From assembly GCF_058153355.1 (NCBI RefSeq), contig NZ_CM177019.1: a stretch of 64,000 nt of DNA; one strand, given 5' to 3'. The position numbers were made by a program. The number at the start of each line of letters is the position of its first letter. Within the stretch, counting starts at the first letter, position 1. Below are positions 58,101-61,100 of this stretch, one piece after another.

Positions 58101-61100
58101 CTGCGCAGATGCAGAAGAAGCCACCCAGCCACGCGCCATACTCGCAGCCTGTTCGCTGTCCATATCGCGCGCTAAAAGTGTTCCGCTTTGCTGCGCCACT
58201 TCCGCGACCTGCATTTGCGGATCTTTGCCGTCGCGCTCCATCTGCATTGCTTTCAGGTTGCGCGCTTCAGGGCTGTTACTGTTAATGAGGGGCACATCTA
58301 TTTCATCGCCCTGACGCACATTGTCAAAGCCCCGCGCAAAAGTACGGAACTGATTCAGGCGACGTAATTCATCAACGGTAATACCAAAGCGTGCCGCGAC
58401 CGTTGGTGGCGATTCCAACGCCCCCAGGGTGTATGGAATAGTTTTAACGTTCGACAGGATCAGTGACGCGGCAGTATCCGAATGCGCAGGGTTAACATGC
58501 GTAGGGGCAGCAGCCATAACAGGGAAAATAGTTTGTGTTATCAGGCAAATACCGGCGGTCAGACGACGTAAACGATCCCCCAATCCACATATGGTTTTAT
58601 CGCCCCGACGATCGCCATTCCCATGCGCTTTCCCTGCCATTTGTCATCCCTGTCGCTATGCGTTCAGATTAAATGACCTTTCTTTAACATGAGGGAAAAT
58701 GATGATTCATGATTAGCAAATGATGAATACAGGCGGAATAATGGAAATAACAACAAGATAAGAACAATACCTGATCAAGGGTTATCAGGGGGAAGAACAG
58801 GAGAGCTTTCCCGCCAGAGCAGTAACCCCTCCTGTAAATACGTTACTTCATTTTCACCTTTGCGGTGACCAATAACGCCGTCAGCAACATCAATGTGCCG
58901 GACAACATCAACGGCGAAGTCAGACCAATATTATCCAGCGCATAACCGCCGATTGCCGCGCCACAGGTATTAGCAAGCTGAATAACCGCCACCTGAATAG
59001 ACCCGGCTTTTTCTGCCTGATCGGCCAGTGAGCGGGTGATCCACGTTGACCAGCCGACAGGAACCAATGCAAAAGTTAGCCCCCAGATAATCGCCACGCC
59101 GGTAGCAACGATTTTATCGCTTCCCCACAACGTCAGCACCAACGCACTCACAGCCAGTATTAACGGCGCGCCTGCTAAGGCCAGTTTTACCGAACGTTTA
59201 AGAATGAACGACGAAAGCGACGTACCAATAAAGCTGGCGATACCAAAACTCAACAGCACCAGAGTTAAGCCATCCACGCCGAATCCCGCCAGGTTCATAT
59301 ACACCGGGCGAATATACGTGAAGAAAGCAAACTGCCCGGCGAAAGACATGAAGATGGCGATCATCCCTGCCATCACACCCGGACGTTGTAATAAGCGGAA
59401 AGTATTTTGTTTCTGATGCGAGGGTTCGCCTGGCAGCGAAGGCAATGATTTGATAATCCAGAAAATACACAGCACGCCCATCACCGCCGCCGCATTAAAG
59501 ACATTGCGCCAACCGATAAGCTCGCCTAAAAAACTGCCCAACGGTGCGGCAATCACCAGCGCAATAGAAACCGCGCCGAAGATCACCGACAGCGCCTTCG
59601 GCACCGTACGCGGCGGCACCAGACGCATGGTCAGCGACGCCGACATCGCCCAGAACCCGCCCAGCGCCAGTCCCAGACAGGCACGACCGATTAAAAGCAA
59701 ACTGAATGAGTTAGCAAAGGAAACCAGCAAGCAGGAGAGCGTCAGCAAAACGGCAAACAAAATAACAACGTAGCGGCGGTCAGTGGCCTGAATTGTCTGG
59801 GTAATAAACAAACTGGCAAACATTGCCACAAAGGCGGTCACGGTCACCGATTGCCCGGCAACCCCTTCCGAAATGCCTAAATCCTGGGCCATTGGCGTCA
59901 ACAAACTGACGGGCAAAAACTCAACGATAATCAGACAGGCGACGCAAAACGCCACCGAGAAAACGGCTGACCAGTTCGGTCGGGTGATGGCATCCGCGCC
60001 GCGGTTTTCGGCAATAAATTCACTCATGGTGTTACCCGTGGCATGTTTCAGAGGAAAAGCCGACCACTTTAACACTGAAATGTGTGACACATTTAACGTT
60101 TTTGCAACTTTTACGGTGTTGTGGGAAAAGTTCGAGGCTGCTCGAAGAAATAAAAATCATAGGGCAAGCTGATATGCATTTTCGCGATTGGGTTGGGAAT
60201 AAGGGATAAAGTATTGCACTTGGTGATATACTTTAATAACAGGACCTCAACGATATGCGCGTGTTTAAAACCAAATGGTTTGCAAGGGAAGCCAGGTCTC
60301 ATGCAATAACAGATGAAGAGTTGTGCCGGGCCATTTTAGAAACGGAGCAAGGTAAAGCTGATGCACTTGGTGGTGGCGTTTTTAAAAAGCGCCTTCACCA
60401 AAATCGTGAGCGTGCAATTATTCTGGCAAAAGGGGGAAGTAATTGGTTTTACACGTTTTTATATGCAAAACAGGATATGTCGAACATCAATAGTCAGGAA
60501 CTGGCTGGGTTTCGTGAACTTGCAAAGCATTATGCCTTCCTGACGAAAGCCCAACTAACAGCAATGATTAACACTAAAGAACTGACAGAGATCTGCTATG
60601 ACTGCAAAAACTAAATTTAAAAGTCCTGCATTTGAGGCTATTCACAGCGCAGCTGCTGGATTGTCCAGCGTCGATGCTATTTCTGCCGAAACGATGCGTA
60701 CTTTTGACAAAGCCTGCCTGACCAGCGTGCAAGACTTACAACCTGTTGAGATAAAAGCACTGCGGGAAAAATTAAAAGTGAGTCAGCCCGTCTTCGCTCA
60801 CTATCTCAATACCAGCGTTTCAACTGTACAAAAATGGGAAAGTGGCGCTAAACGCCCCAATGGCATTTCATTAAAACTGCTCAGCATTGTGCAAAAACAC
60901 GGGCTGGAGGTGCTGCTGTAAATAGAACGTAGATAATGCGTTCACCTACTGTCAGTTCCGATGCCGGATGCGGCGTGCACGCCTTATCCACCCACCAGCT
61001 CAGGCGCGGTCTGTAGGCTAATAAGACGAAACGGTTTTAATGCAGCCAGTGAACGCCCTCAGCAGGCTGAAAGAATGCGTTATAGCGCATCTGAAAAGCA

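Follow-up and report, generated by a model that had tools for sequence, protein, structure and literature searches.

A probable chromosomal HigBA2-family toxin–antitoxin operon between nepI and yicN of Escherichia coli, orthologous to Salmonella relBE3ST

In some strains of Escherichia coli, two small overlapping genes lie between nepI and yicN, raising the question of what they encode and whether they came with mobile DNA or have long belonged to this site. We followed up a first-pass annotation of a 64,000-nucleotide stretch of contig NZ_CM177019.1 (NCBI RefSeq assembly GCF_058153355.1; hereafter the window), which had proposed here a HigB2/HigA2-like toxin–antitoxin pair followed by a REP element, and had suggested that such a module is mobile and may act in phage defence or stabilise an adjacent adhesin/translocon island. 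The two overlapping ORFs, a toxin-like one first and an HTH protein second, were recovered as described, and the coordinates of the flanking genes confirm their placement between nepI and yicN (Table 1). We consider it likely that the pair is a chromosomal type II toxin–antitoxin operon of the HigBA2 (PF06296, 'PF_RelE') family, the E. coli orthologue of Salmonella relBE3ST, with a RelE-type mechanism and an ancestral site.

Table 1. Annotated and candidate features around the gene pair, in positions of the window
Feature	Position	Strand	Description
nepI	58843..60027	-	neighbour upstream of the pair
Presence/absence segment	60121..60961	.	841 bp here; 42-bp filler in module-free C, Nissle, K-12, CFT073 and others
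Candidate operator	60212..60230	+	19-bp inverted repeat TATTGCAC-TTG-GTGATATA; wider palindrome 60207-60235
Inferred extended -10 element	60224..60232	+	TGaTATACT; overlaps right operator half-site; without a good -35
Shine-Dalgarno	60241..60244	+	AGGA; 10 nt upstream of toxin ATG
Toxin gene	60255..60614	+	119 aa, ATG; HigB-2 / PF06296 family, RelE-type fold; putative catalytic K44, R46, R53, Y70, K72
Antitoxin gene	60598..60921	+	107 aa, ATG; HigA-2 type; presumed toxin-neutralising N-terminal segment ~1-45 and HTH-XRE DNA-binding/dimerisation domain ~46-105
Small hairpin	60925..60943	+	GAACGTAgataaTGCGTTC, without U-tract; directly after antitoxin stop; from RNA fold of 60915-61040
REP/BIME-like element	60962..61030	.	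REP stem-loop 60964-60989 and a second, degenerate REP-like half
yicN	61037..61489	-	neighbour downstream of the pair

The two ORFs share the plus strand and overlap by 17 nt, with the toxin ORF first. This geometry of a 360-nt gene, a 17-nt overlap and a 324-nt gene is found in nearly all Enterobacterales loci examined, and a toxin directly followed by an antitoxin homologue is present in 80/80 loci retrieved outside this species, indicating that the pairing is not due to chance. Three loci have lost the toxin and retained the antitoxin, a decay pattern that we counted toward the toxin–antitoxin reading. RefSeq already names the toxin and labels the downstream gene only as an HTH protein; that gene is the antitoxin, and the label is corrected here. 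PGAP starts the toxin at GTG 60261 (117 aa), two codons downstream of an ATG at 60255 that is conserved as the toxin start across Enterobacterales and is probably the real start.

Profile searches recovered the HigB-2 toxin family predicted for the first protein, with a match to PF06296 (E = 9.8e-42) that pairs residues 1–113 with model positions 1–120. Vibrio cholerae HigB2 is a member of PF06296 (PMC11980606) and matches the same profile (E = 3e-8). The toxin is predicted to adopt a RelE/BECR fold, for which a fold search returned HigB2 as the closest solved structure. Searches of the PDB with the toxin (phmmer) and with two family profiles (HMMER) gave no matches, HigB2 included, and an hhalign comparison of the toxin family with HigB2 was weak (E = 0.002, probability 12%), so the link to HigB2 rests on Pfam membership and fold; NCBIfam holds no model for the toxin. 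We conclude that the first gene encodes a member of PF06296 (HigB-2 family) whose predicted fold resembles that of HigB2. The active-site residues of HigB2, K49/R51/R64/Y82/K84 (PMC5416850, PMC10098735), align with K44/R46/R53/Y70/K72 of the toxin. Four of these (K44, R46, R53 and K72) show little or no variation among relatives, and position 70 is Y or F.

In the second protein, the search for HTH_XRE returned an HTH_3 domain (E = 1e-7) at residues 52–96, which leaves the N-terminal extension of about 50 aa that had been noted, alongside an MqsA_antitoxin C-terminal profile match. Residues 46–102 match the V. cholerae HigA-2 structures 5jaa/5j9i (phmmer, E = 8e-10). The N-terminal segment contains a motif, KFKSPAFEAIHSAA.GL, that is nearly invariant across classes, is homologous to the corresponding segment of Coxiella burnetii AntitoxP, and is helical (pLDDT ~90) in an AF2 model of a fused toxin–linker–antitoxin chain, of which confidence values only were used. 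The toxin-first order and the HigB-2/HigA-2-like proteins thus agree with the inverted HigBA-type architecture proposed for the pair.

The candidate operator upstream of the toxin is a slightly degenerate form of a family consensus, TATAGCAC-N3-GTGCTATA, from which two core positions deviate; the core TAGCAC-N3-GTGCTA is found in most alpha-, beta- and gamma-proteobacterial loci, equally far upstream of the toxin. A consensus scan requiring both hexamers found no promoter at the locus, so our promoter call rests on conservation of the extended -10 element, present as TGnTATA(C/G/T)T in orthologous upstream regions. The Shine–Dalgarno region is likewise conserved in orthologues as CAGGA, with CCGTA instead in E. 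coli E69, and a consensus scan for intrinsic terminators found none at the locus. In V. cholerae, HigA2 likewise has as its operator a 19-bp inverted repeat that reaches over the -10 element (PMC11006873); the single operator of higBA2 and the E. coli candidate are therefore equal in length. In contrast, the operator sequences differ (TGTACGC-N5-GCGTACA in V. cholerae versus the family consensus), as do all four base-reading residues (R68/E71/N72/R77 of HigA2 versus S75/Q78/K79/A84 of the E. coli antitoxin).

Comparison with known systems ties the pair to an orthologue in Salmonella Typhimurium, relBE3ST (relE3 = SL3743/STM3777; relB3 = SL3744/STM3778), which has the same place beside nepI and the same 667-bp toxin-first overlapping operon, with amino-acid identities of 70% for the toxin and 80% for the antitoxin. 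The published relBE3ST cloning primers (PMC4366850) and the 667-bp span both map onto the Salmonella locus, where PTS genes lie downstream in the position that yicN has in E. coli. The forward primer for relB3, as printed, is one A short. Induction of RelE3ST, reported to inhibit growth, lowered cultivability (Lobato-Marquez et al. 2015, PMC4366850), and the cloned Salmonella antitoxin failed to neutralise it (PMC4366850); that study concerned another species and did not address mechanism. The literature searched yielded no experiments on the E. coli proteins themselves.

Alongside this orthologue, the closest experimentally characterised relative by sequence is ToxP/AntitoxP of C. burnetii (CBUA0028/CBUA0027, plasmid QpH1), for which toxicity, rescue, translation inhibition and promoter binding have been demonstrated (PMC10098735). 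Along the whole of the toxin, C-terminal extension included, identity to ToxP is 31%; for the antitoxin, a 104-aa stretch that takes in the N-terminal segment is 55% identical to AntitoxP. ToxP differs in being plasmid-borne and acting in plasmid maintenance, in keeping a long basic loop and in an annotated 30-aa N-terminal extension. V. cholerae HigB2/HigA2 (VCA0468/0469; PDB 5JA8, 5JAA, 8A0X) shares the PF06296 family, the aligned active-site residues and the toxin-first order, and the E. coli antitoxin is predicted to combine, as HigA2 does, an N-terminal neutralising segment with a C-terminal HTH-XRE dimer. The toxins themselves are only ~20% identical, and the E. coli protein has no Lys-rich β2–β3 loop and an additional C-terminal helix and strand. 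The V. cholerae higBA2 module is located in the superintegron rather than at a conserved core site. E. coli K-12 HigB/HigA (YgjN/YgjM) and Salmonella SehA/SehB are likewise toxin-first type II systems with RelE-superfamily toxins and HTH antitoxins, but they belong to a different family and are not orthologues, and K-12 HigB structures were only distant fold matches. SehAB was considered as the Salmonella orthologue and rejected: SehB has 142 aa, is 46% identical to K-12 HigA and carries an N-terminal dimerisation domain.

The pair had been thought missing from K-12, and genome comparison confirmed its absence there. Across E. coli its presence is polymorphic: 1716 of 5426 complete genomes carry the module, always at this one site and never on a plasmid. 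Affine-gap pairwise alignment of empty and occupied sites placed the end of the flank common to both alleles at 60120 and its resumption at 60962. The left breakpoint is identical in all sampled module-free genomes, the REP element forms the right one, and no target-site duplications or terminal repeats were found at the indel boundaries. All sampled module-free E. coli carry one deletion allele with identical breakpoints; this allele, with 42 bp in place of the 841 bp up to the REP element, occurs in ~68% of complete E. coli genomes. We do not take the 42-bp filler for a remnant of the module, since its closest match, 16/19 within the toxin gene, lies only ~2.5 sd above shuffles, which reach higher. 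A third and divergent allele, in E. coli HS-02, has 79% identity and a frameshift in the toxin; considered as an intermediate of decay in place, it is an assembly artefact because its alignment progressively collapses into homopolymer runs.

The REP element reported after the pair is real. Its 26-mer, CCGGATGCGGCGTGNACGCCTTATCC, occurs at 60964–60989 and again at 21437–21462 of the window (0 expected in shuffles); it is an imperfect palindrome lying between convergent genes, its stem-loop is seen in the RNA fold of 60915–61040, and naRNA4, a REP-derived Rfam family, matches the region below threshold. The element is also present in the empty allele of module-free strains, indicating an element of the core intergenic region that is separate from the module.

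The order nepI–module–yicN is the same in Citrobacter and Klebsiella, which lack the adhesin island, and in Salmonella the module adjoins nepI, so that the site is conserved on the nepI side. The module has diverged about as much as its flanking genes, dN/dS is ~0.1 for toxin and antitoxin (0.07–0.16 for the toxin) with synonymous sites saturated, and neither ORF is disrupted in the window or in any Escherichia allele examined. Judged from these comparisons, the module appears to be ancestral at nepI–yicN in Enterobacteriaceae, vertically inherited and old at its site, and to have been lost from about two thirds of E. coli, K-12 included, by a single deletion.

Alongside the observed family, fold, conserved catalytic residues, geometry, conserved palindrome, purifying selection, distribution and synteny, we infer a scheme of RNase activity, neutralisation, operator binding and transcription start. 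One promoter, at the extended -10 element, would transcribe the toxin and then the antitoxin, and the 17-nt overlap would couple their translation. Free toxin would occupy the A site of the ribosome and cut the mRNA being translated, by means of K44/R46/R53/Y70/K72, bringing growth to a stop. The antitoxin would dimerise through its C-terminal HTH domain, while its conserved N-terminal segment would wrap around and neutralise the toxin; the HTH dimer, alone or in complex, would repress the operon by binding the 19-bp palindrome that overlaps the -10 element.

A toxin with a RelE fold could instead act unlike HigB2, being weak or non-nucleolytic or having another target. We raise this because the protein lacks the basic ribosome-contacting loop: 6 residues found in the β2–β3 loop of HigB2, ToxP and some family members are missing, and the long Lys/Gly-rich loop whose replacement impairs V. 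cholerae HigB2 (PMC5416850) is absent. SehA, a HigB-like toxin, is reported to inhibit RNase III rather than to cleave RNA, so fold does not guarantee mechanism, and the C-terminal helix and strand of the toxin (98–115, with an invariant E112) have no counterpart in the 110-aa HigB2. Even so, we regard a different mode of action as unlikely: the counterparts of the five HigB2 active-site residues are all conserved, with hardly any variation, SehA belongs to another Pfam family (that of K-12 HigB), and ToxP has the same C-terminal extension yet inhibits translation. The long β2–β3 loop is a feature of HigB2 itself, not of the whole PF06296 family. The retained catalytic residues also bear on a possible decay of the pair to a remnant in E. 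coli, its toxin unexpressed or inactive and its HTH protein kept as an ordinary regulator. ATA replaces the conserved toxin ATG in at least 467 module-positive genomes, the Shine–Dalgarno sequence is mutated in E69, the operator is degenerate and most genomes have lost the whole module; however, the GTG called by PGAP can still serve as a start, the ORFs are intact and the toxin dN/dS is low, and decay is in our judgement highly improbable.

The suggestion of a mobile module was not upheld, given the shared nepI-side synteny across genera, the flank-like divergence, the one deletion allele and the absence of plasmid copies in E. coli; the two top 'plasmid' matches proved to be mislabelled chromosomes. 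It is thus very unlikely that the pair is a recently gained mobile addiction cassette stabilising the eilA/iatC (air) adhesin island, even though relatives are plasmid-borne in other taxa, including the Coxiella plasmid-maintenance system, and adjoin integrases in Pantoea and Morganella. The locus has no integrase or terminal repeats, its synonymous sites are saturated, island-free Citrobacter and Klebsiella keep the same gene order, and nepI separates the module from the island. The proposed role in stabilising that island fares no better: 971 module-positive E. coli genomes lack the island, so the presence of the module is not owed to it. A stabilising side effect may exist, because 745 of ~750 island-bearing genomes (with an iatC–nepI junction) carry the module, an association confounded by tight linkage and shared ancestry. 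As for phage defence, RelE/ParE-superfamily type II systems are discussed as defence toxins (PMC11980606), the Pantoea and Morganella copies lie in integrase-bearing islands beside candidate defence-like genes, and long-term retention under purifying selection suggests some host benefit. Nothing at this locus bore the suggestion out: PADLOC-DB has no match to the toxin and only generic HTH matches to the antitoxin, a phage search found no genuine phage-borne copy, and the E. coli neighbours are housekeeping transport genes. We therefore give little credence to the view that selection has acted mainly on abortive infection against phages and not on addiction or a stress response.

A more speculative reading, which we hold to be possible but doubtful, is that of a domesticated toxin–antitoxin pair, fixed at one core site since before the split of Escherichia, Salmonella, Citrobacter and Klebsiella, with its toxin under purifying selection for a function at the level of the host, such as growth control or phage exclusion, and not for selfish addiction. 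If this were true, the shorter loop for ribosome contact, together with a start ATG that is often lost in E. coli, could tune toxin dose or target, and the polymorphism within E. coli would mark a real physiological difference, for example between O157:H7 and K-12. On the reading that we prefer, a type II operon of the HigBA2 family, three points of annotation are corrected: the downstream gene is the antitoxin, the toxin probably starts at ATG 60255, and the locus reflects an ancestral module with one deletion and not an island-linked insertion. The current understanding of toxin–antitoxin biology is unchanged by this uncharacterised orthologue of a known kind. The finding ties the module to an already studied Salmonella orthologue and two well-characterised relatives, and adds one more to the type II toxin–antitoxin modules that are absent from K-12 but found in many E. 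coli, both pathogens and commensals (O157:H7, EAEC-like strains and others).

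The two ORFs between nepI and yicN, which overlap by 17 nt, are an ordinary type II toxin–antitoxin operon of the HigBA2/PF06296 family. The first-pass annotation had described a HigB2/HigA2-like pair in this gap, toxin-like ORF first and a REP element behind it, and that description proved correct. Past nepI lie a 3128-aa inverse autotransporter (iatC/air type) and then eilA. The REP element was likewise recovered as a stem-loop whose 26-mer recurs at 21437 in the window, against a chance expectation of none. Rfam's naRNA4, a family derived from REP elements, also gives a sub-threshold hit here (60928–60993, − strand; 33.9 bits, gathering score 59.5; E = 8.5e-4), which reflects REP sequence and not a separate sRNA gene.

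Features of the toxin–antitoxin module and its flanks, in window coordinates
Feature	Position	Strand	Remarks
nepI	58843..60027	-	one flank of the module
Palindrome	60207-60235		29 bp, immediately 5' of the toxin; from inverted-repeat scan
Candidate operator	60212-60230		19-bp core TATTGCAC-TTG-GTGATATA, inside the palindrome
Putative extended -10 element	60224-60232		TGaTATACT, overlapped by the 19-bp core
AGGA	10 nt 5' of toxin ATG
Toxin ORF	60255..60614	+	119 aa
Antitoxin ORF	60598..60921	+	107 aa
REP stem-loop	60964-60989		downstream of the module
yicN	61037..61489	-	other flank of the module

A profile search matched the toxin over its full length to the HigB-2 toxin family PF06296 (E = 9.8e-42), with no matching model in NCBIfam or PADLOC. 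V. cholerae HigB2, the characterised type of this family, is a weaker member (E = 3e-8; the sequence used was verified identical to PDB 5ja9_C), and a 2025 review equates PF06296 with the HigB-2 family, toxin-first in gene order and acting by ribosome-dependent mRNA cleavage (PMC11980606). PDB sequence searches with the single toxin protein and two family profiles gave no match. With an AlphaFold2 model from 43 diverse homologues (pLDDT 89.9), the top 11 Foldseek matches were all HigB2 chains (probability 1.0, TM 0.55–0.62). HigB2 active-site residues K49, R51, R64, Y82 and K84 (PMC5416850, PMC10098735) correspond to K44, R46, R53, Y70 and K72, concordantly in the family alignment, hhalign and BLASTP against Coxiella ToxP, and all five are invariant or close to it among homologues. 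The Lys/Gly-rich β2–β3 loop, whose replacement impairs HigB2 (PMC5416850), is six residues shorter in the E. coli toxin, whereas Coxiella ToxP and some PF06296 members retain the long form; relative to HigB2 the E. coli toxin has an additional C-terminal helix and strand (residues 98–115, with E112 invariant), in common with ToxP. SehAB, of the K-12 HigBA type, was considered as a relative and set aside as unrelated at this level; SehA is reported to inhibit RNase III rather than cut RNA, a reminder that RNase activity here is a prediction.

The second ORF encodes a protein with an HTH_3 domain at residues 52–96, and residues 46–102 match V. cholerae HigA-2 structures (E = 8e-10). It is 55% identical to Coxiella AntitoxP over 104 residues, N-terminal part included, and its N-terminal motif KFKSPAFEAIHSAA.GL is almost invariant from alpha- to gamma-proteobacteria. 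In a fused toxin–linker–antitoxin AlphaFold model (34 paired sequences; confidence values only), antitoxin residues 10–24 and 30–40 are helical at pLDDT ~90, which would fit a toxin-binding segment like that of HigA2. Upstream of the toxin, across eight genera and then ~75 distinct loci, the core TAGCAC-N3-GTGCTA recurs at constant spacing to the toxin start in alpha-, beta- and gamma-proteobacteria. Two core positions of the Escherichia operator differ from this consensus. A consensus promoter scan returned no site; the promoter, the transcription start and antitoxin binding are inferred. The HigA2 operator (TGTACGC-N5-GCGTACA; PMC11006873) has a similar form, one inverted repeat of 19 bp that begins past the -35 element and runs over the -10. 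The four base-reading residues of HigA2, R68, E71, N72 and R77, are replaced by S75, Q78, K79 and A84 in the E. coli antitoxin, which fits the differing operator sequence.

Across 5426 complete E. coli genomes, 1716 carry the 841-bp segment at 60121–60961, always as a single chromosomal copy at 95–99% identity, and the exact toxin and antitoxin proteins each occur in at least 1000 public contigs. Module-free strains (K-12, C, Nissle, CFT073, E2348/69 and others) share a 42-bp filler between the same two breakpoints, the right one at the REP start; this deletion allele is found in about two thirds of genomes and in several phylogroups. Window nepI is 98.6% identical to that of module-free K-12 (survey rows H65–H76), and the O157:H7 nepI-plus-module stretch is ~95.5% identical to the window while the module segment alone reaches ~98%; this suggests a mosaic region with recombination between module-positive and module-negative backgrounds. 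A 79%-identical, frameshifted module in strain HS-02 (L099 3908–4886, NZ_CP172818.1) was rejected as a pseudogene: its antitoxin gene collapses progressively into A/C/G homopolymer runs and looks like a poor long-read assembly region.

The toxin start itself varies. O157:H7 strain PV15-279 has ATA (L100 6135–6137) where the window has the conserved ATG (60255–60257), and strain TR01 of the same serotype has ATG; the exact 60-mer with ATA occurs in 467 E. coli genomes and that with ATG in 286, others differing elsewhere in the 60-mer. In ATA strains translation would have to begin two codons further on, at a GTG that lies 16 nt from the Shine–Dalgarno sequence, which may reduce toxin dose; this is probably also why PGAP calls a 117-aa toxin. 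In the divergent strain E69 (L020 5001 region, aligned to window 60240–60246), the toxin Shine–Dalgarno CAGGAC has become CCGTAC, which would weaken toxin translation, with both ORFs intact.

The order nepI–toxin–antitoxin–yicN also occurs in Citrobacter koseri, C. amalonaticus, Klebsiella pneumoniae, K. oxytoca, K. michiganensis, K. grimontii, K. indica, one more Enterobacteriaceae genome and other Escherichia; in Salmonella the nepI side only is seen, and in K. spallanzanii, where the fetched locus begins at the toxin, the yicN side only. Between genera, identity is 80–87% for the antitoxin, 66–77% for the toxin, 81–89% for NepI and 71–83% for YicN, third codon positions are ~50% identical and dS exceeds 1 or is saturated in nearly all comparisons; within Escherichia, dN/dS is 0.07–0.16 for the toxin and 0.07–0.12 for the antitoxin. 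The most parsimonious account places the module here before these genera diverged, with vertical descent under purifying selection and a single removal in E. coli. Among 80 loci, four are decayed, three with a truncated toxin and intact antitoxin and one with both lost, the pattern that a real toxin predicts, in small numbers; in one metagenome bin the antitoxin is short. Two 1-kb contigs of Collinsella sp. MAG Map_57_008 (L019, L061), one with a module of the E. coli type (97%) and one with that of K. pneumoniae (65%), and with nepI/yicN flanks, are almost certainly enterobacterial contamination of an actinobacterial bin.

The first-pass annotation had proposed a mobile cassette stabilising the adjacent adhesin island. 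Mobility holds for the family over long timescales and not for this copy, since modules outside this enterobacterial group lie elsewhere: at unrelated chromosomal sites in Dickeya and Yersinia, beside integrases in Pantoea and Morganella, and on 200 plasmid records, chiefly of rhizobia, Coxiella and Legionella. In P. cypripedii (L014) and M. morganii (L016/L017) the module lies within integrative islands, perhaps with defence-type cargo; it has Phage_int_SAM_2/Integrase_1 and AlpA neighbours, with Phage_ASH in Pantoea, and stands beside DUF5677 or beside Lactamase_B and a ResIII helicase. Module copies in nine Acetobacteraceae species of several genera (L087, L089–L097: Acetobacter, Gluconobacter, Acidomonas, Brytella) have identical similarity scores to the query (57.018% / 60.377%), which points to recent horizontal spread of a single copy, in contrast to the vertical enterobacterial pattern. 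As for guarding, the iatC–nepI junction occurs in 752 of 5426 genomes, 745 of them with contiguous iatC–nepI–module, and 971 module-positive genomes, O157:H7 included, have yicS–nepI–module without the island, which is therefore nested in a module-positive background. A stabilising effect would agree with nesting this close to perfect, but close linkage (1.5 kb apart) and shared ancestry predict it just as well, the counts taking no account of phylogeny. With a fixed core site across genera and those 971 genomes, the guarding-cassette proposal is not supported: the module is independent of the island and, in other genera, older. In the window, the place that yicS and nlpA have in O157:H7 is taken (49254–58640 and upstream) by iatC/air, whose Big-domain repeats are long and near-identical, and by eilA.

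Our literature search found no publication on the E. coli pair itself. The Salmonella pair relBE3ST (relB3, SL3744/STM3778, Xre-like; relE3, SL3743/STM3777, RelE-like; 4000107–4000773; Lobato-Marquez et al. 2015 supplement, PMC4366850) is its orthologue, as its 667-bp span is the exact module length and, on the Salmonella locus, one published relE3 primer matches the toxin start with 1 mismatch and the other matches the operator region exactly. In that study RelE3ST was growth-inhibitory, RelB3ST was detected by mass spectrometry and RelB3ST did not neutralise RelE3ST (PMC4366850). The supplement prints the relB3 cloning forward primer as ATGTCAGCAAAACTAAATTC, with four A's, where the genome (L007 4344–4364) has ATGTCAGCAAAAACTAAATTC, with five. 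Used as printed, it would frameshift the cloned relB3 at codon 5, which could explain the lack of neutralisation; a misprint or a fault in text extraction may just as well account for the difference. The nearest relative with full functional characterisation is Coxiella ToxP/AntitoxP, for which toxicity and its rescue, inhibition of translation and binding to the promoter are all established (PMC10098735). The toxin is already recognised by annotation pipelines (as a 'type II toxin-antitoxin system RelE/ParE family toxin', with the antitoxin as a 'helix-turn-helix domain-containing protein') and work on Salmonella has already covered an orthologue; the modest interest of the module lies in its long stay at a fixed core site, its single deletion allele, the shortened loop of its toxin and the frequent loss of the toxin ATG.
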